This document shows positions 2 through 24,427 of a stretch of DNA of 64,000 nt, piece by piece. The notes under the pieces were generated by a model that saw only the letters and a program-made list of their open reading frames with translations, searched no databases and had not been told where the DNA came from. The stretch is from a virus. The position numbers and the translations under genes were made by a program. Position 1 is the stretch's first letter. Every line of letters starts with the position of its first letter. Where the stretch lies: IMG/VR virus record IMGVR_UViG_3300016472_001104, positions 1-64,000 of that record. The stretch is one strand, 5' to 3'.

Positions 2-865
2 AATACATGTCCTACTTTTAATCCTGCAAGCAACACCTTTGTTGATGGTTCTTGCAATAACCTTCCTGCCAGTGTTAAGCCTTCTGGCGTCCTGACAGAT
101 CCAGGCATTCACAGTCTCTACTTCGGTAACCTATCGTTCCGTCGAAATCGCTTCTTCCACGAGACTTTCCTGTGTCGAAATGGAAACGAACAGGCCGGTG
201 GAGAGCCAACCGATATGCCGCCGCAAGACCCACCCTGCGCAGATCAAAAGTCAATCCCCGGGTATTCTAACAAATGGCCAGTGAACGAGATCGCAGGTAC
301 CTGTAACGGTGGTCGAATCGATTTTCATGCGTATAACGCTAGCAACGTTTGCGCAAACTGTCACTCAACCTGGAACCATCGAGCTCCACTGTTCAGTCAA
401 TTTGATTCAAAAGGAGTCTATCAAATGTTGACGGCTCAGGGAGAGTATTCAGTGTTCGTACCTGTTCCTGGCTCTCCAAAGGCAAAGATGAGCGATTGGC
501 TCTGCATCGATCCGGCGAAGTGTCCTAACTCGGGTAACAACACAACGGCCTGGAAAAAGACAATGAAGGTTGATGGAGTTGATACACCTGCACCGGCTTC
601 TAGCCTGACCGAACTTGGCCAACAGATGTCCAAGGATGATGAGGTGCTCGAGTGTGCGGTCAAAAGAATGTGGAACTATGCGATGGGTCGTGCTGACCTC
701 ACCGAGGTCGGCGGAAGGAGCTGGGTAAACCTCCCAGACAGGAAAGATCAAAATCCTGAACTTCTCACATTATCAAAGCTTAGTGTTCAATTTAAATCTA
801 ACGGTTACAATCTGAAAAAGGTATTCAGGTCGATCCTGGTATCAGATGATTTTGTGAGGTTTTAA
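2..865 (+). CDS. 5'-truncated DUF1588/DUF1585-like periplasmic protein with a CxxCH motif (myxobacterial/planctomycete type)
   Basis: The frame is open from base 2 (NTCPTFN...SGVLTDPG...FRRNRFFHETFLC) into the listed 215..865 ORF. It has a CANCH motif, and the C-terminus CAVKRMWNYAMGR...FKSNGYNLKKVFRSILVSDDF resembles DUF1585. Confidence 0.65.
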   Translation, partial: NTCPTFNPASNTFVDGSCNNLPASVKPSGVLTDPGIHSLYFGNLSFRRNRFFHETFLCRNGNEQAGGEPTDMPPQDPPCADQKSIPGYSNKWPVNEIAGTCNGGRIDFHAYNASNVCANCHSTWNHRAPLFSQFDSKGVYQMLTAQGEYSVFVPVPGSPKAKMSDWLCIDPAKCPNSGNNTTAWKKTMKVDGVDTPAPASSLTELGQQMSKDDEVLECAVKRMWNYAMGRADLTEVGGRSWVNLPDRKDQNPELLTLSKLSVQFKSNGYNLKKVFRSILVSDDFVRF

Positions 866-870
866 AAAAA

Positions 871-1878
871 ATGAAAAATCTTCAAACTGTTCTGTTAACT
901 GCATTTACAATCATGCTCTTTGTGGCATGTGGAAGCACCGCACCCGACATAGACCCAACCGATTGTCCACAAGAAGGTACGGGAAGCTCAAGCGTAGTGT
1001 CTGTTGTTTCCACCGTATCTTCAACATCTGGTGAAGGAGGTTCGATGCAAACCGCAGCCACCTCAGCTGGTGTTGGTGGAATGACGATGTTGCCCGAGTA
1101 TGATGCACCGATGGCAGATGAAATTGCGTCAAGGTTGCATAGTTGCCACAAGCTTTCATACGTTCAGTTGGGCAATTTTTTGCGTAACAGAGGAGTAGCT
1201 GTTCCAATCAACGCGTCGTCTGATCTAAAGACTGCAACCGTAAGCGTCTTTGGGACCAATCAAACTTTGAGCCAAGTGTTCGGTGGAAGTGGAAACTCAT
1301 GTGAAATGGCTGACACCGCAGCGAATGGCTCGGGACCAACCAACGATCCTCTGTGTCCTGCAAATGAAACTTGCTTCTGCAACCAGGACGATAAACAGAA
1401 TGAAATCAATAGAACATGTCTGGATGTTGGGAACAATTCTCCAGATGCAAAGGACGGGTATTGCGTTTCAAAGCTTTCTACTCCTGGTTTTTTATACTTC
1501 ACTAGTAAAAATTCATTTGGTTTCCCAAAGCTCGATTCTCGACTTGCAGAGAAGGATGAGCACACCACAGCAAGTGCGATGAAGCTGATGGACATCTTTG
1601 TCCAGTCTGCGCCACAAATCATTGCCAATATTGGTGATCCTGTTAAGGCTCCTGCATGCACGCTTGGTGGAAAGAATAAACCAATGTTTGATCCCACAGA
1701 TGGAAGTTGCATTGAAGAAACGGTCAGTTGCCTCATTGGACGTCCTGCCACTAACGATCATGTTCTTCTTTGTAATCTTCTTGTCCAGAAGGCAAAGCCT
1801 GGTGACCAGGCAGACTTAAACAAAAAGCGTAACATCGCTGTCGCAACTCTTCTTAGCGCTGCTCATACCTGTCAGTAA
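871..1878 (+). CDS. Cys-rich lipoprotein of myxobacterial type
   Basis: Signal peptide II with lipobox (MKN...LFVA|C), Ser/Thr/Gly-rich linker and many Cys. Lies 5 nt after the upstream gene. Confidence 0.7.
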   Translation: MKNLQTVLLTAFTIMLFVACGSTAPDIDPTDCPQEGTGSSSVVSVVSTVSSTSGEGGSMQTAATSAGVGGMTMLPEYDAPMADEIASRLHSCHKLSYVQLGNFLRNRGVAVPINASSDLKTATVSVFGTNQTLSQVFGGSGNSCEMADTAANGSGPTNDPLCPANETCFCNQDDKQNEINRTCLDVGNNSPDAKDGYCVSKLSTPGFLYFTSKNSFGFPKLDSRLAEKDEHTTASAMKLMDIFVQSAPQIIANIGDPVKAPACTLGGKNKPMFDPTDGSCIEETVSCLIGRPATNDHVLLCNLLVQKAKPGDQADLNKKRNIAVATLLSAAHTCQ

Positions 1879-1893
1879 AGGAAAAATAACAAC

Positions 1894-3498
1894 ATGGCAA
1901 ACTGGAAACTCAAGGAACTTCGTGGTGGTAGGCGTAGAACTTTTTTGAAGATGACGACTGCAGTCGCAGCCGCTGTCGGGATTGAAAGATCTAGGCTTTT
2001 TAACTTTCTTTCTGATGAAGGTGGGAATGGTCTTGCAGAGGCCGCAGGATCGACGTACGGAAGGTCTCTTATTGTCCCATCTCCAAACGGCGTTTATGCC
2101 TGGTTCCAAGAGTTGTGGCCTGTCGCAGATGTCGCGATGAAGGCATGTCAGAACGCCAACGTTTCAGGGTTGTCTTCAAACTTTGGAGGTTTTTCTTCGT
2201 ACCTCTACACTTCTCAGTATGGTTACAATCCATCCAACGGTTATCGTGGAACTTACACGTGGGGTAAAGGTGTTTCCGCACCAGCGTTGCCGAACGGTGT
2301 GAAGGGTTGGTCGGGTGGAGACAGGTCGTTCTTTTATGGTCCTGATGCTCCGTGGTTTGACCACGCCACAGGAACACCAAAGTATCCAGTCACTGCTTTC
2401 ATGTCCGGTAAGGATGAGACCCACACCGAGTTTCCGGTCTCGGCGACTACATTGTCAGGAAACTCATCTCTCCTAGCTGCCCTTGGCGCTCTAGGATCGA
2501 CAAGCTCTGGTGCGATTGTACCTGTTCTTGGCATCGATCCTGTCAAATACGGCCGAGCCCCCGGCGCCCCTGAAGTCGCTACAGTTCCAAGTTCGAATGG
2601 GATGATTGACCTCTTCAACTCTGCCGCGAGCAAGTTCACTCTAGCGACCAAAGAGGACCAAGAATTATTTGAGACTTACTACAAGGCCTTGTTGGGTCTC
2701 AGGAAGTCTTCAAATCGTTCTACATGGGTGCCCCAGATGTCTGTGACAAAGAACGCTGCCAGGATCATCGGTCTCAATTTTGCCTCGCAGTTGTCTCCGA
2801 CGACTCAAGACCTGATCGACTTCGGTGTCCAGGAGCTCATCGATTCTATGACGGCAAACTCAAGCTACATGACGGCGGCTCAACGGAACGGAATCGAAGA
2901 GTTTGGTCGGACGTTAATCGTCGTCGCGAAGGCATTCTCACTGGGCCTCAGCAAGACAGCCATCGTCGCCTTGTCTCCTGGGCCGACCAGTGATACGACC
3001 TTCACAGACCCTCACGTTACATTCGATAATATGACCTTGATGAACCAAGGTAGAAATACCACAAAACATCTTGGGAAGGCTCTAAATGGCTTCTACAACT
3101 ACCTGTCCCAGCAGGTTGATCCAGAGAGCCCTACGGAGAAGCTTGACCAGACAACTACCTTCGTAGCGTATGGTGACACGCCTCACACACCATTGCAGGG
3201 CAATGCATGGCCCGACGCCACACCAGACGGGTGTAATTGGACCTATGTGATGGATCCGAGGGCAAGCATCAAGAATGGATGGTTTGGTCACTGCTACGCG
3301 AATAAGATGGGAGGAAAGAACGGGATAGGGTTCAATCCACTCACCGGTGCTGATGATGTTACAAAGACGTCCGACCAAGTATCATCATTTGCGTCTACAG
3401 CAACTGTTTATGCTGTTGCGAGGGGTGATGGTAATAAGACCGCTGAGTTTGGCAATTCTCCAAACACCGTTGTAGGTTTAATTAATTCAAATAAATAA
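1894..3498 (+). CDS. Tat-exported DUF1501-like protein
   Basis: Twin-arginine motif GRRRTFLK followed by a hydrophobic stretch. FTDPH and TFVAYGDTPHTP resemble the DUF1501 WDTH and GEFGRTP motifs. SD AAGGA upstream. Confidence 0.6.
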   Translation: MANWKLKELRGGRRRTFLKMTTAVAAAVGIERSRLFNFLSDEGGNGLAEAAGSTYGRSLIVPSPNGVYAWFQELWPVADVAMKACQNANVSGLSSNFGGFSSYLYTSQYGYNPSNGYRGTYTWGKGVSAPALPNGVKGWSGGDRSFFYGPDAPWFDHATGTPKYPVTAFMSGKDETHTEFPVSATTLSGNSSLLAALGALGSTSSGAIVPVLGIDPVKYGRAPGAPEVATVPSSNGMIDLFNSAASKFTLATKEDQELFETYYKALLGLRKSSNRSTWVPQMSVTKNAARIIGLNFASQLSPTTQDLIDFGVQELIDSMTANSSYMTAAQRNGIEEFGRTLIVVAKAFSLGLSKTAIVALSPGPTSDTTFTDPHVTFDNMTLMNQGRNTTKHLGKALNGFYNYLSQQVDPESPTEKLDQTTTFVAYGDTPHTPLQGNAWPDATPDGCNWTYVMDPRASIKNGWFGHCYANKMGGKNGIGFNPLTGADDVTKTSDQVSSFASTATVYAVARGDGNKTAEFGNSPNTVVGLINSNK

Positions 3499-3535
3499 AG
3501 ACTAGGGAAACTTTAAATAAAAAGAAAGATATTTT

Positions 3536-3557
3536 TATGGGGTCATTTGACCCCATA
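3536..3557 (+). terminator. Hairpin, probable intrinsic terminator after the cassette
   Basis: Inverted repeat TATGGGGTCA-TT-TGACCCCATA; the U-tract is weak. Confidence 0.5.
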
Positions 3558-3570
3558 GTCATTTTATGTA

Positions 3571-3578
3571 ATAGTTAT
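3571..3578 (+). promoter_or_regulatory. ATANTTAW putative late promoter
   Basis: ATAGTTAT 7 nt before ATG 3586; the motif recurs upstream of many genes. Confidence 0.5.
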
Positions 3579-3585
3579 CTATCGT

Positions 3586-3819
3586 ATGAAGATAAAAGTT
3601 TCACATCTAAGAAGCCTAATAAGGGAATGTATTCTTACCGAAGAGGAAATGAGAAACGTTACTTATTTGACACAAGATAACATCGTAAAATTGCTTAAGA
3701 ACTACGGTGTTGATAAGCAGGTTGCATTAGAAGAAGATGTTAAATTTTACGAAATGGTAAAAAAATATTTGAATTCATCAATAGAACTGCAAAAGCGTAT
3801 GCATCAACTTCAAGGTTGA
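3586..3819 (+). CDS. Hypothetical protein with MKI..LR.LI.E leader
   Basis: 77-aa ORF starting MKIKVSHLRSLIRECILTEEE. Confidence 0.7.
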   Translation: MKIKVSHLRSLIRECILTEEEMRNVTYLTQDNIVKLLKNYGVDKQVALEEDVKFYEMVKKYLNSSIELQKRMHQLQG

Positions 3820-4286
3820 TGCCAGAAGAAGACTTTATAATCAGCACCGAAGAATTTTTTTCAAGAAGTATAAAAAATAGTAGAGGTGAAGTCCCCGATT
3901 TTGTTAAAAAACTTCTTAGACAAAAATTTCATATCAAGCTTTTAGATGCTTCAAAAATTACACTAAGAGGGCGCTCGGGTACGGCGTCACCAGACAGGGT
4001 GATAGTTCAAAACGTTTTGGAAAAACTTGCTGGATTGTTGGCTGGATCTTCTGACAATAAAAACCTTGACAAACTTGCTAATTTGTTTCAGGTATATGGG
4101 TATAAACCTGGCGTGAAGATGTCAAATGAGTTACAGGGTAACATCACTGCTTTTAAAGACAAGATAGAAAAAGAAATTATGAGTGCGATGAATCCACGAA
4201 TTGAGCTTGATGATGTATTCGTGAGAAGTGGACGGGCGGGTAAAGAAGCAACATCGAATTTGATGAAAACAAAACCTGGCGGTTGA
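3819..4286 (+). CDS. Hypothetical protein
   Basis: ORF coupled to the previous gene through a TGATG overlap. Confidence 0.65.
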   Translation: MPEEDFIISTEEFFSRSIKNSRGEVPDFVKKLLRQKFHIKLLDASKITLRGRSGTASPDRVIVQNVLEKLAGLLAGSSDNKNLDKLANLFQVYGYKPGVKMSNELQGNITAFKDKIEKEIMSAMNPRIELDDVFVRSGRAGKEATSNLMKTKPGG

Positions 4287-4389
4287 TAAAATCATAAACA
4301 AATTAACTTCTTGTACACAACATCAGAACCTGAGTATCCTTTAATCATTCGGCAAAACAACAAAGCCGATGAATAGTTGGAGAAATAAA

Positions 4390-4659
4390 ATGTCTAAGAG
4401 CAAGAAGAACCATACAGTTACAACGAACAAGAACGCAATCATTCGTAGCCGAGTTGATCGTACAGGAAAGCTTCGCACGGAGACAGCACGCAGGGATTAT
4501 GGTTTCAATGCAGCACTGAGCACCGATGAGAGGAATGATTCAACTCGCCTTTTCATCGACCTTCAGGAGGGAACGGTTGAGTTTACAGGCCGCGAGGCTC
4601 GAACCCTCTACCGTCTGCTTCGTAGCCATTATACCTTCACTGGTAAGCCTCGCCGCTGA
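4390..4659 (+). CDS. Small basic hypothetical protein
   Basis: GGAG SD before ATG 4390; Arg/Lys-rich; followed by a terminator. Confidence 0.7.
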   Translation: MSKSKKNHTVTTNKNAIIRSRVDRTGKLRTETARRDYGFNAALSTDERNDSTRLFIDLQEGTVEFTGREARTLYRLLRSHYTFTGKPRR

Positions 4660-4683
4660 TTTACTTTACTTAAATCTTAACTT

Positions 4684-4720
4684 GAAAAGGAGATCTTTTA
4701 GGTCTCCTTTTCTTTTTATT
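4684..4720 (+). terminator. Intrinsic terminator
   Basis: GAAAAGGAGATC-TTTTA-GGTCTCCTTTTC followed by a T-tract. Confidence 0.7.
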
Positions 4721-4741
4721 TTTATAGGAGAATCTAAAAAA

Positions 4742-5263
4742 ATGCAAATTACCAAGCGTGAAGCACTGTCACTGATTAAGGTACTAAGTCATTACGATTC
4801 ATTGATGTCATATGACAAACACTATCCTGTTGTTGATAACATCCATGATCTGATTCAAGATTTTGAAGAGTTTATCTTAAGTGAAGATGAACCTTATGGA
4901 GTAAAAACGTTTTCTGATTCAATGAAGGTTGATAGTGATATTGAACCAAACGTACTTTGTAACCTGCAAAAAGTTCGTGGACATGTAAATAACTCTTCTG
5001 TTGGCGAATCTGGGGATGATGTTGTTCTTTCGTTTAAAAAGGTTATTAATGAGACAGGTGAAGTTGATACTTTTCTGATGGTTGGAAAAGATGTAGTTGG
5101 TCCCATAACTTACTTAGCTGTTCATGATCGTGAATTGCAGGTTGCTACTGGGCAAGGTCAGGATAGGCTTTGGCACTATTTTGATATCGAGCAAACCAGT
5201 CAAGATTGGATGAATGTTTTTGGAAACAAAAACTACGTCTATAGAGTCATTAACTGGGTATAA
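4742..5263 (+). CDS. Hypothetical protein
   Basis: AGGAG SD upstream of ATG 4742 (MQITKRE...); the longer listed start overlaps the terminator. Confidence 0.7.
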   Translation: MQITKREALSLIKVLSHYDSLMSYDKHYPVVDNIHDLIQDFEEFILSEDEPYGVKTFSDSMKVDSDIEPNVLCNLQKVRGHVNNSSVGESGDDVVLSFKKVINETGEVDTFLMVGKDVVGPITYLAVHDRELQVATGQGQDRLWHYFDIEQTSQDWMNVFGNKNYVYRVINWV

Positions 5264-5323
5264 ATACAATTGATTTTGTGCCATTGTAGTTGAAAAAACA
5301 AATACCTATACTAAGGTATTACA

Positions 5324-5539
5324 GTGGCACAAATCATAAAAAAAACAAATGTTCTTATAACAACACTTTTAAAATCAAGAAATGATCTTGATGAATTGCT
5401 AAATGTTGTAAGAACATGGAGAATGAACGGAATAAACGGTTCTGGAATTGTTCCAATAGCAATATTACCGTTGGAAGCAAAATTGGAAAAAACCATAACC
5501 GACATCGATGCAATGATAAAGATCGCTGCTAAAGTTTAA
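5324..5539 (+). CDS. Hypothetical protein
   Basis: 71-aa ORF with GTG start and AAGGT upstream. Confidence 0.55.
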   Translation: MAQIIKKTNVLITTLLKSRNDLDELLNVVRTWRMNGINGSGIVPIAILPLEAKLEKTITDIDAMIKIAAKV

Positions 5540-5572
5540 ACAACCTTTATCATATAAAATAAAATACGATAC

Positions 5573-5752
5573 ATGTCAGCGACAACAGAAACATTATTGC
5601 TTCAGATTCTAGAATTAGAAAATAAAATTGTTGAGTGCAAGCATAGAGGAATTGACACATTTTATTTAGAAACTTCACTTCAATCTTTGAAAGAAAAGTT
5701 TTCAATTCTTAATGAAGCATTAAATAATTCAAATGAAGTTCTAAAAGGATGA
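5573..5752 (+). CDS. Small coiled-coil hypothetical protein (59 aa, below the track cutoff)
   Basis: Translates MSATTETLLLQILELENKIVECKHRGID...NEVLKG* and fills the gap between neighbours. Confidence 0.55.
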   Translation: MSATTETLLLQILELENKIVECKHRGIDTFYLETSLQSLKEKFSILNEALNNSNEVLKG

Positions 5753-5754
5753 TA

Positions 5755-5970
5755 ATGCAAAAAGTAGACTTATACCAACCAATGGTTCATGTCAGGGTAG
5801 GTGCACCTCCCCTCGCACTCACAGTCGCAGTTAATAAAAATTCTATGGAAACTACAAATGGTCCAATCGAGGGCGCATATAAACCAGAAACATATGTTCT
5901 TTTGTCTGCACTTCCTGAAGAACTTCGTGAAAGAGTTAAGACAGCAGTACAGATGTTGATGACTTTTTGA
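5755..5970 (+). CDS. Hypothetical protein
   Basis: AAGGA SD before MQKVDLY...; precedes the endolysin. Confidence 0.6.
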   Translation: MQKVDLYQPMVHVRVGAPPLALTVAVNKNSMETTNGPIEGAYKPETYVLLSALPEELRERVKTAVQMLMTF

Positions 5971-5978
5971 GGTTTAAA

Positions 5979-6767
5979 ATGTTACAGATTTTAAAAAGAG
6001 GTTCAACCGGTGATGATGTTGAACGATGGCAAACGTTTTTAAGAGGATTGTCAACAAATAGTTCAATAGTTGTTAATGGCACATTTGATCTTTATACTGA
6101 AAATGAAACAAAATCATTTCAAAGTAAAAAGGGACTTGTTTCCGACGGTATCGTAGGATTGAAAACTCTTTCAGTTGCATTACAAATGGGTTATCCCTTG
6201 ATGGATGATCCTACATTAGATGTAAATGGGCCAAGCTGGCCGCAAAAACCTCAAGGAGGATCACTAAGTTTTCTTGACAGAGAAAAGCTTTTTGGTAAGT
6301 TTTCATACGTTTCTTCTCCAACGTATGCAAATCCAGAGGCAATCACAATCACTGATAACTGGATAACAAAATCAATTGTTAACGTAAGTTTACCTCACCT
6401 TACCAGCGTTGCTGGTTTTTCAAAATCTGGTATGGTTTCTATTCATACTGCAATTTCTCAACAATTTTTAGATTTATTTAAAGCCTGGAATGATGCAGGA
6501 TTAACTTACTTGATCATGTCGTGGGGTGGTACATGGTCACCACGATACATTAGAGGTTCTAGAACGATCCTTTCAAATCATGCTTGGGCAACAGCATTTG
6601 ATATCAACGTTCAATGGAACCAACTTGGTGCACAGCCTGCTCTCAGGGGAGAGACTGGTTCAGTTCGTGAATTAGTTGAAATTGCATATGATCATGGTTT
6701 TTATTGGGGAGGATGGTTTCCAAAAAGACCTGATGGAATGCACTTTGAGGCATACAAAATCATATAA
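5979..6767 (+). CDS. Endolysin: peptidoglycan-binding domain plus M15 zinc peptidase
   Basis: N-terminal LKRGSTGDDVERWQ...FQSKKGLVSDGIVG (PG_binding_1). C-terminal SNHAWATAFDIN and WGGWF..PDGMHFE (peptidase M15). Confidence 0.9.
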   Translation: MLQILKRGSTGDDVERWQTFLRGLSTNSSIVVNGTFDLYTENETKSFQSKKGLVSDGIVGLKTLSVALQMGYPLMDDPTLDVNGPSWPQKPQGGSLSFLDREKLFGKFSYVSSPTYANPEAITITDNWITKSIVNVSLPHLTSVAGFSKSGMVSIHTAISQQFLDLFKAWNDAGLTYLIMSWGGTWSPRYIRGSRTILSNHAWATAFDINVQWNQLGAQPALRGETGSVRELVEIAYDHGFYWGGWFPKRPDGMHFEAYKII

Positions 6768-6811
6768 CAGAACCTAATTGTTAGTAATGCCATAATTAAT
6801 CTTTAGATAAT

Positions 6812-7234
6812 ATGGCTGTAAGAACAAGAGATGTATCGAGATCAAGAAAGGCCTATTCATATTTTAGGCCAAGACCTCGATTGATCTACATGGCAGAAGA
6901 AGAAGAAATGAATACAATTCAGGAAACAATGAACGCAGCCCAGGCAACAATGAACACAGTTGCAGGTTTATCTAGCATTGTAAACACTCTACAAAACAGC
7001 GTTAATAACCAAATAGTTTGGAATGAAACACCATCAGGAAATATTGATGGAATGAACGTAAACTTTACGATTGAAAACACACCATTAGAGAATAAAATAC
7101 TTGTGTTCGTCAATGGTGTTTTACAAGAAAAAGAAAATGATGCTGATTATCAATTAAATGATAAAACAATTACATTTAATTACCCACCAGTTGTGGATTC
7201 AAAAATATTAGTAACATACACTAAGGCGATTTAA
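6812..7234 (+). CDS. Putative virion protein with C-terminal VFxNG...DY beta-domain
   Basis: ETPSGNIDG.N..F...LVFVNGVLQ...DY..ITF motif typical of large-phage fibre or decoration proteins; ATAATTAA upstream. Confidence 0.6.
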   Translation: MAVRTRDVSRSRKAYSYFRPRPRLIYMAEEEEMNTIQETMNAAQATMNTVAGLSSIVNTLQNSVNNQIVWNETPSGNIDGMNVNFTIENTPLENKILVFVNGVLQEKENDADYQLNDKTITFNYPPVVDSKILVTYTKAI

Positions 7235-7237
7235 AAC

Positions 7238-7849
7238 TTAAACGTTTTTTGGTTTTCTTCCTCTTTTACCGGATCCTTCTTTTATTTCTTTTACTGTTTC
7301 AAGGATCTTTTTCTTTCTTTCTGCAATATCAATTGCAGCTTTACCGATCTTTGTGTTTGGGTTTTTGTCAGGCCTTGTTTTTTGTTTGTTTTCTTTTGTT
7401 TCCGGTACAACTGTTTTTTCTTGCTGAGCTTTCTCTTCTTGTTTCTTACTTAGAGCACTTTCATGGCTTGCTTTGAGTTTCACAAGTTTCTCTATATCAC
7501 TCTTTAGAAAGACCATTTCACCTTGTTTTGAATAAAAAAGTCTTTCAGCATCCAAAGAGACGTTTTTTGCAAATAACATCATGTTGTTTAGAACAGACTC
7601 TATTAGTGTTGCTACTTCTTTAGGAATTTTATTCTGTTCTACTAAGCTTGCCAATTCACTTTTTTGTTGTTTAATGTGTTTTTCTATCTTATCGATTGAT
7701 TCTTTTGAACCTAAAGCGTAACCATCTAGTCTTTTTAGGTTTTCGATCATAGTGTTGAGTTGGCTATTTTTATCATTGATCAACTCCACAAAAAGCTTTA
7801 CCCTTGCCGACACCATAGAACCAAAGTCTGATTGATTTCCTTCACTCAT
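7238..7849 (-). CDS. Coiled-coil hypothetical protein with basic C-terminus
   Basis: 203-aa ORF ending KRGRKPKNV. Confidence 0.7.
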   Translation of the reverse strand: MSEGNQSDFGSMVSARVKLFVELINDKNSQLNTMIENLKRLDGYALGSKESIDKIEKHIKQQKSELASLVEQNKIPKEVATLIESVLNNMMLFAKNVSLDAERLFYSKQGEMVFLKSDIEKLVKLKASHESALSKKQEEKAQQEKTVVPETKENKQKTRPDKNPNTKIGKAAIDIAERKKKILETVKEIKEGSGKRGRKPKNV

Positions 7850-7898
7850 GTTTTTATCTATTTAAATTGCTTTAGTTTTTTACCATAAAAATTTTTAT

Positions 7899-7934
7899 AA
7901 AAATAAAAGGGCCCAGAGATTTCTCTCTGGGCCC
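7899..7934 (-). terminator. Intrinsic terminator downstream of the fibre gene
   Basis: On the minus strand: GGGCCCAGAGA-GAAA-TCTCTGGGCCC-TTTTATTTT. Confidence 0.75.
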
Positions 7935-7980
7935 CCGGCTAGTCAGTCTTAACCGTAGAATTTAACCTTTAAGGTTAAAT

Positions 7981-10839
7981 TCATGCTGCGTTGTGGATGA
8001 CAATCATGAGGCGATCATCTGCAACTGTGTCGAAGCCGATGAGACGGATGTTGTCAACGCTTTGGATGCTGTAGTCTTCGCCGAACGCAAGGCGCACGCC
8101 GTTGAGGTAAACATCCATTGCAATCTTCTTCGCTGCATCTGAAGCGATCGATGCCGAGCGGAGTGATCCGACTGAAGAGAAGTCGATGTCAGATCCTGCT
8201 GCAACAACTCCTGGCATGATGGCGTCTTGCTTGAAGTTACCACCTGATGCCGCAGAGATGATTGCAGAGACGAGAGAGACCGCACCGAACTGGGCCTCAA
8301 ATGCTGCTTGCTCACCGTCAGCTGCGAGGCTGAAAGCTTCATCGCCAAGGGCAACGAGCTTGAGTTCAGCACCGGCTTCTGCCTTAACAGAGAAGTCAGA
8401 TCCATCCTTGGCGATAGAACCGACCATTGAACCTTGGTCAGCACCGATCTTGGCTTGTGACATCCATGCTGGTGCAAGTGCAGCACCGCCAAGTTCAATT
8501 GCGTTATCGCTGTCAACGTTTCCTTCAACATCGAGCTTGGCGAAGATAAATTCTCCGTCATGTGAGTTCTGTCCGAGGACAAGATCGTCGTATCCGCCAC
8601 CGGAGTGGAGCACGATACCCTTGTCATCAGAACCAGCAGAACCGGTTGCGATGTGGATGAATGCGTCCTTAACCTGGAGGTTTTGGGTCTCGATGTATGT
8701 CATTGCACCTTGAACGCGAAGGTCACCAACGACAACCGCATCACCGGTGACGTTAAGTGACGCAAATGTTGCGTCAGACGCTGAGATATCACCAGCAATT
8801 GTTGCATTACCGTCCATTTGAAGGTCGCCGCTGGAGCTGATGGAAAGACCAGATGCTCCGTATCCACCACCAACTGCGAGTGTTGCAAACTGAGCATCAT
8901 CAGCAGAGATGTCTCCGGTGATGCTTGCTGCACCTGTCATGCTGAGATCGCCAGAAATTGAAACGTTGTTTCCGAAGGAAGACGTTCCGCTTGTGGTGAG
9001 TTCAGCAATAGAGGTGTTTCCTGCGCTAAGTGTGCCACCGATGGATGCATTTCCAGAAACATCAAGTGCTCCTGAGAAGTTTCCATCAACTGCTCCTACG
9101 TCGCCGCTAAATGTACCGTCTGTTGCAGAAATTGCAGCGAAGGTAGATGCACCGACAACGGAGAGGGTGCTTGCGAAAGAAACCGCACCATCGACATCAA
9201 GTGTGCTGTTGAGATCAACTGCACCATCAACAGCAAGTGTGCTGTATGCATGGACTGCACCGTGAAGGTCAGATGCCATTGCAACGTCGAGAGCACCGTT
9301 GAGATCTGCATCTCCGTCAACGATGAGGTCGCTGTATGCATGCACATCTCCGTGGAGATCTGAGGCCATTGCAACATCAAGTGAACCGTTGAAATCAGCA
9401 TTACCTGTGAGTTCAAGTGCTCCTGCAAGAGTTGCCTTTCCTGCGACATCAAGAGTTGAAGAGAAATCAACCGCACCAGTTACATCGAGTGTTGAAGCCA
9501 TGGTGGCTGCACCATCGACATTGAGTGAGGAGTTCATGTCAACGGAACCGGTGACAATGAGTGATCCTTCGAGGACGGAGTTACCAGCAACTGAAAGGTT
9601 AGAAGTGATTGCAGCGTCACCCATGACAGCGAGGTCAGAGGCCAATGTTGCATCACCTGTGACTGTGAGAGCACCTGCAACTGACGCATCGTCAGAGAAG
9701 GTTGCTGCACCGGTTGTGCTAAATGCACCATCAACAGCGAGTTCAGATCCGTCAAAGGTGAGTTTTGATTCGTCCTTGATAGATCCATCTGAGTCAACGA
9801 TGTAGAGGCGTTGTGAAACGTCTCCATCAATCTTCATGGATGCTGCCATCACAGTACCAGAAGCGTCAATATCTCCGTCAACTGCGAGCTTAGATCCGTC
9901 GAAGACAAGCTTTGCTTCATCCTTCATTGAACCGTCTGAGTCAACGATGTAGAGACGTTGTGCTGTGTCGCCATCAATGCTGATCTTGTTTGCAGTTACG
10001 TTGCCATTGAAGTCTGCGACACCTGCAACAGAAAGATCACCAGTGAGATCAGAATCTCCAGCAACTTCGAGGTTGCCGTCGAGGTTTGCAAGGCCGACGA
10101 TCTGAACTTCGGCATCGAACGTTGCCTTTCCTGTAACGTCGAGTGTTGAAGCCATTTCGACCGCGCCGGTGAGCGTGGACGCTCCATCGACGCTGAGGGA
10201 ATCAGAGAGAGAAGCAGCTTGTGTGACAGAGAGAGAGCCACGAACTGTTGTTGCAAGCCCTGAAGCAGCAAGGTCAACTGCACCTGCTACGTCGAGGCTT
10301 CCATTGAGATCTGCTGCACCGTCAACGCGGAGGTCGGCGTAAGCGCGGACGTTTCCGTGAAGGTCTGATGTACCGGCAACGTCGAAGTTTCCATCAACGT
10401 CTGCGGCGCCATCAACGTGAAGGCTGCTATCGAAATCAGCTGCGCCTTGAACGTTAAGTGTTGATTGAAGAGTTGCAGCACCGACAACGCTGAGGCTTGA
10501 TCCCATGGAGACCGCACCAGCGAGATCAGAAGCGTATGCAACGTTGAGATCCCCACCGATGTTTGCATCAGCAACTGAGCTGATGTCACCCTGGAATGAT
10601 GCATCAACTCCTGTTGCACGCATTGCTCCGTAGATGTCTGCAAGGTCTTGTGAACCATCGAGCGCATCTGACCATGCAGACGTACCCATGACTCTCTTCA
10701 TTTGTGAACGAAGTGAGTTAAGGTCGTCAAGGATAGAACGATTTGCCTTTGTGAGATCAGCAAGAGCGACGCTATCGCTCAAGTCTGACGGAAGTGAACC
10801 GCTGATCTGTGATTGTTGAACCTGTGTTTTTTTAGCCAT
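7981..10839 (-). CDS. Acidic repeat-rich fibre or appendage protein (beta-helix-like repeats)
   Basis: 952 aa of ~6/12-residue LxVxGxxxxx repeats, Asp-rich. C-terminal VYLNGVRL..GEDY domain. AAGGTG SD and ATACTTAT motif upstream. Confidence 0.65.
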   Translation of the reverse strand: MAKKTQVQQSQISGSLPSDLSDSVALADLTKANRSILDDLNSLRSQMKRVMGTSAWSDALDGSQDLADIYGAMRATGVDASFQGDISSVADANIGGDLNVAYASDLAGAVSMGSSLSVVGAATLQSTLNVQGAADFDSSLHVDGAADVDGNFDVAGTSDLHGNVRAYADLRVDGAADLNGSLDVAGAVDLAASGLATTVRGSLSVTQAASLSDSLSVDGASTLTGAVEMASTLDVTGKATFDAEVQIVGLANLDGNLEVAGDSDLTGDLSVAGVADFNGNVTANKISIDGDTAQRLYIVDSDGSMKDEAKLVFDGSKLAVDGDIDASGTVMAASMKIDGDVSQRLYIVDSDGSIKDESKLTFDGSELAVDGAFSTTGAATFSDDASVAGALTVTGDATLASDLAVMGDAAITSNLSVAGNSVLEGSLIVTGSVDMNSSLNVDGAATMASTLDVTGAVDFSSTLDVAGKATLAGALELTGNADFNGSLDVAMASDLHGDVHAYSDLIVDGDADLNGALDVAMASDLHGAVHAYSTLAVDGAVDLNSTLDVDGAVSFASTLSVVGASTFAAISATDGTFSGDVGAVDGNFSGALDVSGNASIGGTLSAGNTSIAELTTSGTSSFGNNVSISGDLSMTGAASITGDISADDAQFATLAVGGGYGASGLSISSSGDLQMDGNATIAGDISASDATFASLNVTGDAVVVGDLRVQGAMTYIETQNLQVKDAFIHIATGSAGSDDKGIVLHSGGGYDDLVLGQNSHDGEFIFAKLDVEGNVDSDNAIELGGAALAPAWMSQAKIGADQGSMVGSIAKDGSDFSVKAEAGAELKLVALGDEAFSLAADGEQAAFEAQFGAVSLVSAIISAASGGNFKQDAIMPGVVAAGSDIDFSSVGSLRSASIASDAAKKIAMDVYLNGVRLAFGEDYSIQSVDNIRLIGFDTVADDRLMIVIHNAA
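9728..9978 (-). repeat. Internal duplication (147-nt period) in the fibre gene
   Basis: IDGDTAQRLYIVDSDGSMKDEAKLVFDGSKLAVDG versus IDGDVSQRLYIVDSDGSIKDESKLTFDGSELAVDG. Confidence 0.85.
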
Positions 10840-10909
10840 TGTTACACCTTAAAAGTGATAATTGCGTACGTACAGGTCGACACACCACGTGCGGCCTTGG
10901 TACGCATTC

Positions 10910-10917
10910 ATAAGTAT
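10910..10917 (-). promoter_or_regulatory. ATANTTAW putative late promoter
   Basis: ATACTTAT on the minus strand, ~70 nt upstream of the fibre start. Confidence 0.5.
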
Positions 10918-11094
10918 TCGCTAGCGAACTACAGTAATACGCTGGCGATGCACTATTTGTCACGATTTTGTCATACTTTCACTTTTTTAGATTACAAGTG
11001 CGAAAAACGGTTATAGCGAAAAATTCTTCAACTCAAATCAATAGTTCGACCATAATTTTATCTAAGGACCCAGCGTGTCGAAGGACGCACAAAC

Positions 11095-12279
11095 ATGTCA
11101 ACATTTTTAACCACTATCAATCCAACGCCGTTTGGTTTTTTTGATTCTGAGGTATCATTTCAAACAGAAGCAGATTCGATGGTTTTGTTTGTAAAAAGAA
11201 AACTTGGCGATGATGTTCTTTCAGTTGAATTAACAAAGAAAGAAATTTGGGCCTGTTTTGAAGAGGCTTGTTGTGAGTATTCCCGTCTCATTCACGAGAT
11301 GAAGATCACTTCTGAGTTGACTAATATACTTGGCTTGCCAACTACAACCAACGTGACAAACAAATATGCTCAAAGAACGATAGAACACCTTTTAAGGATG
11401 GCTGAACCATATGCATCTGAGGCGTTTGTCGGTGGTTCTTATGATGCAACACTTGGGTATATTGATCTTGTTTCCGGTAGACAGGATTACAACATATATT
11501 CAGAGGTAAAGGTTGCTTCTGGAAGCATGTCTGGTAGTGTACTTTACGAAACATTACCGTCTGGATCTAAGGGAAAACTTAAGATTGTTGAAATCTTTCA
11601 TTTTGAGCCATTGGCTGCACAACAATTTTTGTTGAATGCTTCAAACGTAACAAACTTTCTTGCGACAAACTTTAATTACGAATCGTATGTAAATTCTACG
11701 GTTTTTTATGTCCTGCCGGTGTTTGAGGATATTTTGAGAAGAGGAATGCTTGAGACAGCATTTCGTGTTAGACGTTCAAACTATAGCTATGACGTATTGG
11801 GCAGTAACCTAAGGATCTACCCAACACCATCAACTGACCTGCAGACAGGAAAACTGTTCATAAAATTGATGCCAAAGCATGATCCGTATAACCCTACTGC
11901 TTATGGCGACGATTCAATAAATGGAATTTCAGGACCTTCAGACGTGCCGTTCGGAAACATACCATTTATATCAATAAACCAGCCAGGTCGACAGTGGATT
12001 CGTCAATATACATTGGCACTTTGTAAGGAACTTCTAGGATTGATCCGATCAAAGTTTCAATCAATTCCAATACCGAACGCTGAACTTCAGCTTAACGGTG
12101 ACTCGTTGGTAACCCAAGGCAGAGATGATAAGGAAAAGTTAACGACACAGATGAAGGAATTCCTTGCAAACTTGACATATGCAAAGATGTTAGAAACTGA
12201 CGCATTAGCTGCTGAAAACCTACAAAAACAACTTAAATACGTGCCGATGCCTTTGGGGAAGGGCATCGTCATCGGGTGA
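11095..12279 (+). CDS. Neck protein (T4 gp13-like)
   Basis: KRKLG..VLSVEL, WIRQYTLALCKELLG..RSKF and LNG..L..QG motifs; first gene of the neck/tail block. Confidence 0.8.
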   Translation: MSTFLTTINPTPFGFFDSEVSFQTEADSMVLFVKRKLGDDVLSVELTKKEIWACFEEACCEYSRLIHEMKITSELTNILGLPTTTNVTNKYAQRTIEHLLRMAEPYASEAFVGGSYDATLGYIDLVSGRQDYNIYSEVKVASGSMSGSVLYETLPSGSKGKLKIVEIFHFEPLAAQQFLLNASNVTNFLATNFNYESYVNSTVFYVLPVFEDILRRGMLETAFRVRRSNYSYDVLGSNLRIYPTPSTDLQTGKLFIKLMPKHDPYNPTAYGDDSINGISGPSDVPFGNIPFISINQPGRQWIRQYTLALCKELLGLIRSKFQSIPIPNAELQLNGDSLVTQGRDDKEKLTTQMKEFLANLTYAKMLETDALAAENLQKQLKYVPMPLGKGIVIG

Positions 12280-12287
12280 GGTAAATT

Positions 12288-12956
12288 ATGGCACGTCTAT
12301 TCATAACATCACGTGAAATAAATTTCATCTCTGACGTTACCAAAGAGATCATAAAGGACGTTGTAGGTCAAAAGATTTATTACTATCCAATATCCGAGAC
12401 AAAAACAAAATCTCACGAAGTTTATGATGAAGCCCTTCAAAAGATTTTTGATAATCCTATAATTGTTGATGTTTTGGTTAATGCGGAGTTTCAAACTGAA
12501 ACAAAAATTGACAAGTTTGGTGTAGATACACAGTTTACTTTGGAAGTTTACATCCAACACAGGGACATGGTAGAAAAAGGAATTAATCCTTCAATCGGTG
12601 ATTACTTTTCTTTTGGCGCAATTTTTTATGAAATAACAGAATACAAATACATGCGCACAATCTACGGTCAAGCCGAGAACATTGACGGTGTATCATTAAT
12701 AGGCAACAGGGTTCGTGAAAGTCAATTCAAGGCACTTACGGTTGGTCCAACAGATATCAAGTATACAGATGATGATGCAACGCAAAAGACGTTTGTCCAA
12801 CAACGTGGTTTTGCAGAAAACAAGGAAGGTGAGACTGCGGACGTTAGAGATCTTGTTAAGAACGGGGTCCTTGATCCGCCTCTCACAGGGCCCAAAGAAA
12901 TCTCCAGTAATGGAGACCCAGGTGGCGTTGGAAATGCTTTCTATGATGAGGATTGA
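12288..12956 (+). CDS. Neck/head-closure protein (T4 gp14-like)
   Basis: IIKDVVGQKIYYY, VYDEA, KFG, P.IGDYF...FYEI; lies between gp13-like and gp15-like genes. Confidence 0.7.
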   Translation: MARLFITSREINFISDVTKEIIKDVVGQKIYYYPISETKTKSHEVYDEALQKIFDNPIIVDVLVNAEFQTETKIDKFGVDTQFTLEVYIQHRDMVEKGINPSIGDYFSFGAIFYEITEYKYMRTIYGQAENIDGVSLIGNRVRESQFKALTVGPTDIKYTDDDATQKTFVQQRGFAENKEGETADVRDLVKNGVLDPPLTGPKEISSNGDPGGVGNAFYDED

Positions 12957-12958
12957 AT

Positions 12959-14302
12959 ATGCCAACTAGATTTAACTCAAGCAGCAAGCAGAGGTACGGC
13001 GTCACCGGAATCAATTTACCATCGCACCAAGGAAGTCCAGACCTAACAATCCCTCCAGTTGGCATTGAAGACGTCGACGTTGCCTTATTTAAATTGTTTG
13101 ATAATGAAATTAAGTTACAGGTGGGTGGAAATAATTCAGATTTTAAAAAGGTTCCTGTGATCTTTGCAACGGGAGAAAAGTGGGCAATTTTAAAGAAAAA
13201 AAGCGCCTTAAGAGATAAAAACAACTCATTAATTCTTCCGTTATTGACGATAGCAAGAACGGCAATAAATCAAGATCTTGGTTCTGACGTCTCCGGAAGG
13301 GGTATAAATCAGCAAACCGGTGAAATCATAATAAAAAGAAGGTTGGATAAATCTGACAGGGGATATCAAAACCTCATAAATCGCTATCTTTTAAAAAACC
13401 AACTTAATGTTGCAACAAACCCTGACCTTGAACATGCTAATGATCAATTGTTGACTGACCGGGGGGTCGGTGCAGATTCTGATGATGTTGCTGTACGAGA
13501 TGGTGCCTGGCTCGCAGACATAAAGAAAAATAACATATATGAAACAATAGTCATTCCATCCCCCCAATTTTGCAGCATAACATATGAATTAACGTTATGG
13601 ACTCAATATACGCAACACATGAATCAATTGTTAGAACAAATCATTGCGTCATTTTTGCCGCAAGGAAACGCGTGGAAGCTAGACACGCCAAAAGGTTATT
13701 GGTTCATTGCAACGGTTGATGGAAATTCATATAGTCCTGATAATAATTTCAACGAGTTAGGTAGAGACGAAAGGGTTGTTAAATACACGTTTAATGTGAA
13801 GGTTAATGCATATATTTTTGCGACACAATACCCAGGGGTTGGAATTCCTGTGAAGAGATATGTTTCAAGTCCAATCATAAAGTTTCAAACAGACATTGAT
13901 CCGCAGGGAGAAATTATCAATTCAGAAAGCGATAAAATTCTCAATGACCCATTCATTGGATCAGATGATCCAACATTCCCTTTAAATGAAACAAAAAATC
14001 GTAGAAAAGACCAAAGGAATGTTGGAACAAGGTTGTTGAATCATTTTGATGATCCAAATGATTCAGAAGATCCAGCAATTAAAAACAGAACATCTAAAGA
14101 CGGAATGCCATTGTACGAAAAGATACAATACGTTGATGCTGATGGTAACACAAGCACAGGTTATGCTAGGGTTTATAGGGTAAACCAATCACTGGGAGAG
14201 TCAGTGATAAAGCCTGCGTCATTAATTTCTGATAAACCAGCACCGGTAACAGCAGAGGCTTTGCTTGGTGGTCTTACCTATCATATCGTTGAAGATAAGT
14301 GA
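12959..14302 (+). CDS. Tail terminator / sheath stabiliser (T4 gp15-like)
   Basis: KVPVIFATGEKW, LPLLTI.R, P....ITYELTLWTQY..MNQLLEQII. Confidence 0.75.
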   Translation: MPTRFNSSSKQRYGVTGINLPSHQGSPDLTIPPVGIEDVDVALFKLFDNEIKLQVGGNNSDFKKVPVIFATGEKWAILKKKSALRDKNNSLILPLLTIARTAINQDLGSDVSGRGINQQTGEIIIKRRLDKSDRGYQNLINRYLLKNQLNVATNPDLEHANDQLLTDRGVGADSDDVAVRDGAWLADIKKNNIYETIVIPSPQFCSITYELTLWTQYTQHMNQLLEQIIASFLPQGNAWKLDTPKGYWFIATVDGNSYSPDNNFNELGRDERVVKYTFNVKVNAYIFATQYPGVGIPVKRYVSSPIIKFQTDIDPQGEIINSESDKILNDPFIGSDDPTFPLNETKNRRKDQRNVGTRLLNHFDDPNDSEDPAIKNRTSKDGMPLYEKIQYVDADGNTSTGYARVYRVNQSLGESVIKPASLISDKPAPVTAEALLGGLTYHIVEDK

Positions 14303-14328
14303 GTAATTTGATTTTTGGTTTTTTTCAA

Positions 14329-14336
14329 ATACTTAT
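14329..14336 (+). promoter_or_regulatory. ATANTTAW putative late promoter
   Basis: ATACTTAT upstream of sheath 1, which has an AAGGAG SD. Confidence 0.5.
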
Positions 14337-14373
14337 AGGAAAGTTTTGTGCGTTGCAATGAAGGAGCTGGATA

Positions 14374-17300: not shown

Positions 17301-17400
17301 TAATCGACTCAACGGAAGGATCGTCGTTGTGCCGACAAGGGCAATAGAGTTTATCGCTATCGACTTTATCGTAACAAATGCCGGTGTCCAGTTCGTTTGA
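14374..17400 (+). CDS. Contractile tail sheath protein 1
   Basis: N-terminal SP..F.RE, G...KGPAFVP, F...FG. C-terminal PWFAPAG.NR, INPI, YGQKTL, LDRVNVRRLL, FEQN, PTRAIEFI. Confidence 0.93.
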   Translation: MAEQVFRSPNFFEREVELKAPPVTGPIGVPAGVIGTSNKGPAFVPVTVASFNEFVSIFGNLDPKKFGPYAVNEFLKNRSSLTYMRVLGAGANKTITDISNTVTTGRVKNAGFKLEGTVASDDAKGRHVGAVQFLVADHTLQANEAYGMPMFTDNGSRSQSSNMSLVRGVVMMAAGARMMVLDGNQSVPSAFSGATTFDDAALVKSGKFKLVISSTLGSTFSFDDKLSGVKIYTASMNPSSDDYFGKVLNRDPEKFEQYQHLLYSDLAVDDEVATVVNDDYVAVLSGSTLTSTVSGEPTTEFRKMFGAFDTRYTSPRTPYFISQPFGATEYDLFAVESLDDGAYANSLYKVSISNIKVSENEADEYGTFNLQIRDWNDTDINPMVLEEFVNCSLNPDADNYIGKLVGDRKVTYDFDQDVVSERRIITSGKYANISKYVRLVINPSVDDKKVPAKSLPFGFRGHEVIKTNDALTDGVTSAKRLTGLFDADSVGFLSQSIVPPVPFRFKVTKGSITTPAWDGDPGPQEVASSQFYWGVKFERNNVPLNANLSELKNPLLESFTKFSGIKKLDSLVTGSGADLFNNNKFSLSKVALSAGTIAGLTGTVRSHMREAAYVRNAKVDPSNYTINDPVLGNRVTFATLLSNGEPYEFNKYSTYAKFTTFMQGGFDGLNILDPAASRMNDKATSFENPLGGASTSFVSPGMLTNLAGSGVDNNAVNSYITAVDVMTDPLQVNVNLLAVPGIREDYLTNYTAKKVRDYGLAMYVMDLPNYDDNDARIYDDSTNRINIENTAATFESRTFDNNYVATYFPNVYINDTVNNRYVKVPSSVAALGALGFNDKVSYPWFAPAGFNRAALDFVNNVEVRLNVTDRDRLYDARINPIATFPRLGFVIYGQKTLQIRKSALDRVNVRRLLLEVKRLIISIANKIVFEQNTPAVRNKFVADAVLQLSLIQAQAGIEAYQVVMNETNNTQEDVDLNRLNGRIVVVPTRAIEFIAIDFIVTNAGVQFV

Positions 17401-17423
17401 TCTCAAAAAACGAAGATAATTTG

Positions 17424-17431
17424 ATATTTAT
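17424..17431 (+). promoter_or_regulatory. ATANTTAW putative late promoter
   Basis: ATATTTAT upstream of sheath 2, which has an AGGAG SD. Confidence 0.45.
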
Positions 17432-17457
17432 CATGCATAGTGTAGGAGCAAGAATAA

Positions 17458-20508: not shown

Positions 20509-20562
20509 AACAAATCGATTAAATTAAAACAATGGTTTTAGTTTATCAATAATCGATAATTT

Positions 20563-20595
20563 TTAAGGGCTTCTTATGAGGCCCTTAATTATTTG
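20563..20595 (+). terminator. Intrinsic terminator between sheath 2 and sheath 3
   Basis: TTAAGGGCTTC-TTAT-GAGGCCCTTAA then TTATTT. Confidence 0.6.
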
Positions 20596-20641
20596 TATTG
20601 ATATTTGTTTCATTTATGGGTCTCATAGATTAAAAGATCAC

Positions 20642-20649
20642 ATAGTTAT
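20642..20649 (+). promoter_or_regulatory. ATANTTAW putative late promoter
   Basis: ATAGTTAT upstream of sheath 3. Confidence 0.5.
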
Positions 20650-20672
20650 TGAACGAAAAGAAGTTTTTATAG

Positions 20673-24393: not shown

Positions 24394-24427
24394 TATGGGT
24401 CACGATATATTTATATCGTGACCTATA
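24394..24427 (+). promoter_or_regulatory. Hairpin covering the endonuclease start codon and containing ATATTTAT
   Basis: GGTCACGATATA-TT-TATATCGTGACC; GTG 24418 lies in the 3' arm. Confidence 0.6.

Follow-up and report, generated by a model that had tools for sequence, protein, structure and literature searches.

A Phage-Borne Three-Gene Relative of PSCyt/PSD and Tat-Exported DUF1501/DUF1552 Modules, Probably Captured from Lake Polyangiaceae

Introduction

PSCyt/PSD proteins are consistently paired with a protein carrying a twin-arginine translocation (Tat) signal, either of the DUF1501 family or of a second family, and no function has been assigned to them (PMC3542564, PMC5615132). Such modules occur in massively duplicated form; fusions to carbohydrate-binding domains are frequent, as is a location next to sulfatase genes (PMC3542564, PMC5615132). 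Here, a cassette of three genes (g1, g2, and g3) at the left end of the virus record IMGVR_UViG_3300016472_001104 of IMG/VR was analyzed. The stretch under study, called the window below, consisted of bases 1–64000 of this linear 92,041-bp record, for which CheckV gave a completeness of 26%. The cassette is a compact three-gene relative of the bacterial modules in which PSCyt/PSD proteins accompany a Tat-exported DUF1501 or DUF1552 protein. Its carrier is an uncultured, large, freshwater T4-like phage whose closest deposited capsid relatives are distant.

Two described systems come closest to this locus. In one of them, PSCyt1/PSCyt2/PSD1 (DUF1549/DUF1553) or DUF1800 proteins are paired with Tat-signal DUF1501 proteins (Kamneva et al., 2012; PMC3542564). 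As in that system, PSCyt2 was the commonest match of the g1 family, and the partner protein had a Tat leader and an alkaline-phosphatase-type fold; however, the first motif of g3 was P-N-G and not the G-G-x-D of Polyangia DUF1501 proteins, and g3 had no PF07394 match. The other system, found in Planctomycetota, Verrucomicrobiota, and Myxococcota, joins PSCyt3/PSD proteins with a Tat-signal DUF1552 protein (PF07586, HXXSHH). It likewise has PSCyt3/PSD2 matches, a single CxxCH as in g1, and a Tat-signal partner gene close downstream, with only g2 intervening in the window. The DUF1552 proteins of Minicystis and Polyangium shared with g3 the post-leader motif R-x-[LIV]-x-x-x-x-P-N-G...W.P and the order of the motifs. 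In contrast to this system, none of the 89 g3 family members matched PF07586, and HxxSHH was replaced by T-D-P-H-V-T-F; g1 was much shorter than typical DUF1592-type proteins, an extra lipoprotein (g2) was present, and the cassette was borne by a phage.

T4-like phages carry host-derived nutrient-acquisition genes, such as pstS and phoA of cyanophages and other auxiliary genes of the pho regulon. Like the cyanophage genes, the cassette was nested in a host phylogeny, recoded to phage composition, and kept under purifying selection, and its products were predicted to be destined for the host envelope. It differed from them in being a three-gene Myxococcota operon inside a structural gene block, and a protein search for g3 homologues in 50,697 GenBank phage records gave no hit. 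By phylogeny, phage context, and purifying selection, the trio consists of host-derived auxiliary phage genes.

A first-pass annotation, made from the sequence alone, had described a myxobacterial-type periplasmic cassette carried by a phage, had proposed to check it by its presence in related phages and by phylogeny against bacterial homologs, and had named a chimeric junction or host flank as the case against it. It knew of no described auxiliary gene set of this kind, and no report of the phage cassette was found in the searchable literature. The same literature gave no report of a phage of Polyangiaceae and no functional study of DUF1501, DUF1552, DUF1588, or DUF1800. Neither modules of this type nor phage genes derived from a host are new; what the searchable literature does not describe is the present family of three genes, the confinement of that family to Polyangia, the way in which it became fixed in a lineage of lake phages, and the two captures.

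Occurrence in Related Phages

The same trio was present on at least 35 further IMG/VR phage contigs, with g3 proteins that were 78–85% identical; 28 of these contigs came from a single-protein scan and 7 more were added by a profile. In several long related contigs (187, 204, 211, 97, 79, and 63 kb) the trio was internal. All sufficiently flanked loci had the same gene order, consisting of a prohead protease, a 640-aa protein, a gp23-type capsid protein, a small HNH gene, and g1-g2-g3, followed downstream by small open reading frames (ORFs), a lysin, a fibre-like protein, and an Ad2 adaptor.

The remaining proteins of the window included neck, sheath, and tape-measure proteins, UvsX, SSB, a DnaB-type helicase, and ribonucleotide reductase, together with an M15 endolysin with a peptidoglycan (PG)-binding domain, a beta-helix fibre-like protein, the Ad2 head-tail adaptor, and a sheath stabiliser. 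These phage genes, and the internal position of the trio in related contigs, confirmed that the cassette is carried by a phage. A host flank or chimeric junction was excluded for the cassette because the trio was located mid-contig in phage contigs of 187–211 kb, between capsid and tail genes.

No nucleotide match to the window was found among GenBank phages. The closest deposited relatives of the capsid protein were those of an uncultured 484-kb phage, the Flavobacterium 'immuto' phages, and Microcystis phage Mel-JY01, all with less than 50% identity.

Bacterial Origin and Selection

A profile scan covering one genome per prokaryotic species found the same trio at 64 bacterial loci, and all 64 belonged to the class Polyangia of the Myxococcota, in agreement with the myxobacterial type proposed at first. 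The carriers were Polyangium, Minicystis rosea, Byssovorax, Chondromyces apiculatus, Labilithrix, Kofleriaceae, and many metagenome-assembled genomes (MAGs) of Polyangiaceae. The order g1-g2-g3 was kept in nearly all of these loci, whose GC content was 0.58–0.74. The neighbouring genes varied, with Kelch and Pyr_redox genes in Minicystis and ClpB, NADH-dehydrogenase (Nuo), and GH35 genes in the Tanganyika-type MAG K_DeepCast, and gave no functional clue.

The closest bacterial g3 proteins (62–74% identical, GC 0.61–0.66) came from five lake MAGs, namely those of Rimov, Zurich, and Baikal, K_DeepCast, and one other. The lake MAGs were 4.1–5.2 Mb in size and had 2–4 paralogous trios each. The phage capsid gene was not found in these five MAGs, and the MAG trios are therefore chromosomal copies; the absence of the capsid gene shows only that they are not mis-binned phage DNA.

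In the phylogenetic tree of g3, the 28 phage sequences formed one clade (SH-aLRT 98) inside a clade of lake Polyangiaceae MAGs (99), next to which came the Baikal/F1-60 pair (100) and then other Polyangiaceae. The g1 and g2 trees agreed with the g3 tree, which indicates that the phage lineage received the whole trio in one piece from lake Polyangiaceae. Given this capture from lake-dwelling members of the family, Polyangiaceae (Myxococcota) are the probable hosts of the phage.

The phage g3 genes had a GC content at third codon positions (GC3) of 0.37, compared with 0.77–0.90 in the nearest bacteria. Among the phage copies, the ratio of nonsynonymous to synonymous substitution rates (dN/dS) was 0.047 for g3 and 0.19 for g2; the Ad2 adaptor and the capsid gene had ratios of 0.054 and 0.155, respectively. 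Most phage-phage pairs were saturated at synonymous sites. The phage trio is thus recoded to phage composition and under purifying selection. The capture is old, since GC3 is phage-like and synonymous sites are saturated while the proteins are still 78–85% identical. Taken alone, the evolutionary part of the interpretation, a long-resident cassette captured from lake Polyangiaceae, is highly probable.

A Second Capture

Three more phage contigs (L117–L119, one of them 200 kb) were detected with a profile of a distant bacterial branch. Their capsid proteins were 77–79% identical to that of L009, the 187-kb contig with a window-type trio, and their own trio was located just 3' of the capsid gene, from which it was separated by a NUMOD3 endonuclease gene and a small ORF. 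The g3 proteins of these contigs were 33–34% identical to the window g3 and 61–62% identical to the copy of a Lake Erken MAG, which had a near-identical sister from a Mendota MAG.

In the g3 tree, L117–L119 were placed across the deepest split of the family from the other phages, each side of the split being supported at 100. A constraint that put all phage copies into a single clade cost 431 lnL (approximately unbiased (AU) test, p 5e-7), the group in this constrained test having been defined after the tree had been seen. In the capsid tree, L117–L119 fell in the same unresolved radiation as the other phages, and a branching inside the phages with the first trio version was not separated from one beside them. 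One lineage of phages thus took up two paralogous trios, and did so at roughly the same position. Two captures are strong evidence for a benefit on the phage side and for a Polyangiaceae host, and the fact that a complete three-protein system, and not a single metabolic gene, was taken twice argues that the trio works as a unit and brings a real advantage to the phage.

Predicted Gene Products

On its sequence, g1 is assigned to the PSCyt2/PSCyt3/PSD2 family as a predicted lipoprotein with a CxxCH haem-attachment motif. Full-length relatives had about 486 aa, and the contig starts too late to include the N-terminus of the window copy, with its signal peptide and lipobox. The window g1 matched PSD2/DUF1585 (PF07624) with 27.0 bits (cut-off 25.8) and, weakly and over the CxxCH, PSCyt3/DUF1588 (PF07627) with 15.8 bits (cut-off 27). 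Among 50 family members, 47 matched PSCyt2/DUF1549 (PF07583), 28 PSD2, and 21 PSCyt3 at E ≤ 0.01, and a few touched PSD1 and DUF1800; the second phage version of g1 was above both the PSCyt2 and the PSCyt3 cut-offs. The first-pass description of a CxxCH protein with DUF1585- and DUF1588-like segments was upheld, with the window copy above the cut-off for DUF1585 and weak, below the cut-off, for DUF1588.

The CxxCH motif of g1 (CANCH in the window) occurred exactly once in every phage or bacterial homologue that reached the position, and C316, C319, H320, N324, and H325 were invariant in the g1 alignment (A3). Lipoboxes ending in YGC, AGC, or AAC were found in the phage relatives with a locatable start and in most bacterial relatives, and the nearest bacterial copies shared the YGC lipobox with the full-length phage relatives. 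The AlphaFold2 (AF2) model of the closest full-length relative was mostly helical, with a predicted local distance difference test score (pLDDT) of 81.6. No solved structural relative was found for this model, Foldseek giving none below E 2 and VIA-align a best Z of 3.6.

The g2 protein started with MKNLQTVLLTAFTIMLFVAC and had the lipobox LFVAC and 15 Cys residues, which confirmed the Cys-rich lipoprotein of the first-pass annotation. In nearly every locus, phage or bacterial, the gene between g1 and g3 was a g2 homologue, and most of these homologues had a recognisable lipobox. The conserved part consisted of the C-terminal 120 residues or so, where C263, C287, H332, and C334 were at least 90% conserved among 81 homologues. 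No Pfam or NCBIfam match was obtained for g2, and the structural leads from ESM Atlas to DUF1800/PSD1-type proteins were weak (template modelling (TM) score 0.35–0.47). A spanin or lysis role for g1 and g2 was considered and rejected, as both are large and as their orthologues, in the same trio, are found on bacterial chromosomes and in genomes that show no phage context.

The g3 leader, RRRTFLK, was a twin-arginine leader of the S/T-R-R-x-F-L-K type, in which R14, R15, and F17 were invariant in an alignment of 22 sequences (A1) and at least 90% conserved in one of 89 sequences (A2). The window g3 matched Pfam TAT_signal with 16.4 bits, below the cut-off of 22.7, and 45 of the 89 family members matched it (best E 2e-5). 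Besides sub-threshold Tat-signal hits, the window g3 had no Pfam or NCBIfam match.

The AF2 model of g3 (pLDDT 86.6) was compared by VIA-align with 48,161 chains. The top 50 chains all belonged to the alkaline-phosphatase superfamily (Z 8.2–11.5; 212–269 residues aligned; root-mean-square deviation 3.9–7.2, and 4.3–5.0 in the top ten) and included sulfatases, PafA/SPAP phosphatases, NPPs, iPGM, MCR-1/EptA, and LtaS. Foldseek gave the same superfamily weakly (E ≥ 0.04). The conserved residues E175, H177, and T178 (GKDETHT), D372-P-H374, D428-T-P-H431, and D441 form a cluster of Asp, His, Glu, and Thr side chains that are candidates for a metal-binding set and a nucleophile. A profile of the g3 family gave one hit against PDB sequences, TNF-alpha (E 0.06), which was taken as chance. 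The best viral structural neighbour was weak (E 0.07), a 'DUF1501 domain-containing protein' of an uncultured Caudovirales phage (BFVD A0A6J5M742); classical DUF1501 genes are therefore also present on phage records.

None of the 89 g3 family members matched PF07394 (DUF1501) or PF07586 (DUF1552), even at E ≤ 1. Alignment by hhalign with eight Polyangia DUF1552 proteins gave a probability of 46% (E 2e-4), covering the leader and the first strand ('P-N-G...W.P') only, compared with a probability of 3% for DUF1501; the later g3 motifs paralleled the DUF1552 order by eye. Minicystis and Polyangium had classical DUF1501/DUF1552 genes elsewhere in the genome and not at the trio locus, and neither a PF07394 nor a PF07586 match was present at the trio locus of Minicystis rosea. 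The g3 protein belongs to an unclassified family of alkaline-phosphatase fold, whose first motif resembles DUF1552 more closely. Of the Tat-signal DUF1501-like protein proposed at first, the Tat leader and the likeness in fold and gene context stood, and the assignment to DUF1501 at sequence level did not.

Organization and Neighbouring Genes

The genes were tightly packed, with intergenic gaps of 5 nt (g1-g2) and 15 nt (g2-g3) and with GAGG and AGGA preceding the starts of g2 and g3, respectively, by about 12 nt. The ORFs, the gaps, and the stem 3' of g3 confirmed the tight three-gene cassette with a closing hairpin that had been noted at 2–3498; the hairpin is a consensus match only, such sites occurring 8 times per 8 kb against 6.2 expected by chance. 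The coordinates of the features are listed in Table 1.

Table 1. Coordinates of the cassette and of other features of the window.
Feature	Position	Strand	Description
g1	2-865	+	5' end open, truncated by contig start; C-terminal 287 codons
g2	871-1878	+	335-aa Cys-rich lipoprotein with Ser/Thr-rich linker; conserved C-terminal domain ending H-x-C
g3	1894-3498	+	534 aa; Tat-signal protein, alkaline-phosphatase-superfamily fold
Terminator-like hairpin	3535-3558	+	10-bp stem, 4-nt loop, T-rich tail; 3' of g3
77-aa ORF	3586-3819		directly 3' of the hairpin; begins MKIKVSHLRSLIRE
Endolysin	5967-6767		PG_binding_1 + Peptidase_M15_4; 2.5 kb 3' of the cassette
952-aa protein	7981-10839	-	Pfam 'Bactofilin', 87.9 bits; region GC 0.51, richer than surroundings
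Tail-sheath paralogues	14374-23813		three in tandem, ~1000 aa each; all match phrog_23
Homing endonuclease gene	24418-26076		separate, 552 aa; after the sheath genes
Ribonucleotide reductase, large subunit	47734-51750		HNH-endonuclease-like insert, residues ~410-670

In some relatives the endolysin gene was on the opposite strand. The 952-aa protein was considered as a host-derived marker because of its 'bactofilin' match and was rejected, its relatives being beta-helix fibre-like proteins on phage-sized contigs that are uninformative on the host. It resembles a tail fibre or spike and not a cytoskeletal protein, because these relatives are long beta-helix proteins on phage contigs; some of them had Peptidase_S74 chaperone domains.

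In the related phages, homing endonuclease genes were located between the capsid gene and the trio, of the HNH type in L009 (7145–7468) and of the NUMOD3 type in L119 (5878–7311). Such genes may have helped in the gain or exchange of the cassette at the spot next to the capsid gene. The gp23-type capsid genes of L004–L028 were compositional outliers, with a GC content of 0.55 and a GC3 of 0.60 compared with a GC3 of 0.34–0.39 in the neighbouring genes. The insert in the ribonucleotide reductase is possibly an intein or an intron-encoded endonuclease. No tRNA genes were found in the window.

Discussion

For the working of the trio we infer the following export, complex formation, catalysis, substrate, and benefit. 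The g1 and g2 proteins would be exported by the Sec pathway, lipidated, and anchored in the membrane facing the periplasm, and g3 would fold with a metal cofactor in the cytoplasm before crossing by the Tat pathway. The three proteins would then assemble into one membrane-tethered periplasmic complex, in which g3, the presumed catalytic subunit on the strength of its modelled fold, would act on a phospho- or sulfo-ester as a hydrolase or transferase that depends on metal, and in which g1 with its CxxCH and g2 with its conserved Cys and His residues would be redox, metal, haem, or substrate-binding partners. The first-pass annotation had expected the products to depend on the lipoprotein, Tat, and possibly cytochrome c maturation (Ccm) pathways of the host; the conservation of the lipoboxes, the RR motif, and the CxxCH bears out the signals, from which a dependence on host Lol/Lgt, Tat, and possibly Ccm would follow. 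The whole account, as far as a membrane-tethered complex with g3 as its catalytic subunit, is held with a little more confidence than doubt.

The most likely payoff for the phage would be to keep up or boost the scavenging of ester-bound phosphorus or sulfur from dissolved organic matter by the host during infection. Nutrient-ester scavenging is ranked first among the possible roles because the bacterial families are multi-copy and substrate-diverse; the 2–4 paralogous trios per lake MAG and the duplicated PSCyt modules are typical of substrate-diverse acquisition systems. This role is put forward tentatively, and it falls somewhat short of an even chance.

Ranked second is a modification of the cell surface, in which the complex would alter lipopolysaccharide, exopolysaccharide, or a receptor, for instance through the removal or transfer of a phospho- or sulfo-group, so that superinfection would be blocked or the progeny kept off the debris of lysed cells. 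The first-pass annotation had put forward surface remodelling, superinfection exclusion, and an influence on social behaviour as possible roles. All three products are predicted from their sequence signals to be directed to the envelope, and the structural matches of g3 to MCR-1/EptA, LtaS, BcsG, and PbgA (Z 8.3–9.7) are matches to envelope-modifying transferases. The position of the cassette next to lysis and virion genes is consistent with late expression, and two independent captures point to a strong benefit for the phage. However, bacterial trios in several copies with variable neighbours are unlike housekeeping envelope biogenesis, g3 is without the membrane domain of EptA/LtaS-type transferases, and no receptor is known. 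Envelope remodelling is unlikely as the role. Somewhat less likely again is a periplasmic redox module, with g1 as a c-type haem lipoprotein exchanging electrons with g3 and sustaining the energy metabolism of the host. An electron-transport role has been suggested for related PSCyt-DUF1501 modules (PMC3542564). The CxxCH and the conserved N-H after it do not vary among the g1 homologues and the Tat leader suggests an enzyme loaded with its cofactor, yet there is a single haem motif, no cytochrome c fold was recognised, and the fold of g3 is of the hydrolase/transferase type and not of the oxidoreductase type.

Two further explanations were weighed. As a neutral passenger or decaying cargo, the trio would be functionless in the phage, in keeping with the lack of a demonstrated function and with the adjoining homing endonuclease genes of the relatives, which could move DNA without selection. 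This is very improbable, as about 35 diverged phages have kept the three frames intact, dN/dS is low in g3 (0.047) and g2 (0.19) with synonymous sites saturated, the export signals and motif residues are kept, and a second independent capture took place. An artefact, either bacterial DNA flanking a prophage or sequences joined chimerically where the contig ends, would fit the contact of the cassette with contig position 1 and its GC content of 0.46, compared with 0.36 in the next 4 kb. It is effectively refuted by the 35 further independent phage contigs from many samples that have the same trio in the same place, mid-contig in those of 187–211 kb, by the phage-like GC3 and the separate clade of the phage copies, and by nearest bacterial copies that are only 62–74% identical and have a GC content of 0.61–0.66.

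Several points weigh against the interpretation of an ester-cleaving complex captured from a Polyangiaceae host. The left junction is out of sight in this record, in which the cassette runs up to the end of the contig. The assignment of the host is indirect: the phage has a GC content of about 0.40, compared with 0.62–0.71 in the candidate hosts, and no spacer or shared DNA was found between window positions 3500–23000 (19.5 kb) and the five lake Polyangiaceae MAGs. For g1, dN/dS was noisy (6 usable pairs, range 0.07–1.66), and haem binding is putative, the g1 model having matched nothing of cytochrome c type (best Z 3.6). The C/S-x-P-x-R signature of sulfatases was not present in g3. The PSCyt/PSD, DUF1501, and DUF1552 families have no known biochemical function (PMC3542564, PMC5615132), so the substrate of g3 is a guess. 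The location of the cassette inside the block of virion genes suggests late expression, which fits nutrient scavenging poorly.

In its boldest form, the proposal is that phages of planktonic lake myxobacteria have, on at least two occasions, captured a minimal, self-contained PSCyt/PSD and Tat-enzyme module, which serves them as an enzyme machine of the envelope, for the harvest of nutrient esters or the destruction of receptors; this is speculative and rather doubtful. If true, it would provide a first tractable handle on a module family with many copies per genome across Planctomycetota, Verrucomicrobiota, and Myxococcota, because the viral module is small, has three genes only, and was kept by a virus. 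It would also connect a cosmopolitan clade of large, uncultured phages from lakes with a host. The finding links abundant, uncultured, large freshwater T4-like phages to Polyangiaceae. In bacteria of the Planctomycetes-Verrucomicrobia-Chlamydiae (PVC) group and in myxobacteria, few gene families of unknown function are as large as those of PSCyt/PSD proteins with DUF1501 or DUF1552 partners, and the compact, strongly constrained viral version is a practical start for their biochemistry and structure.

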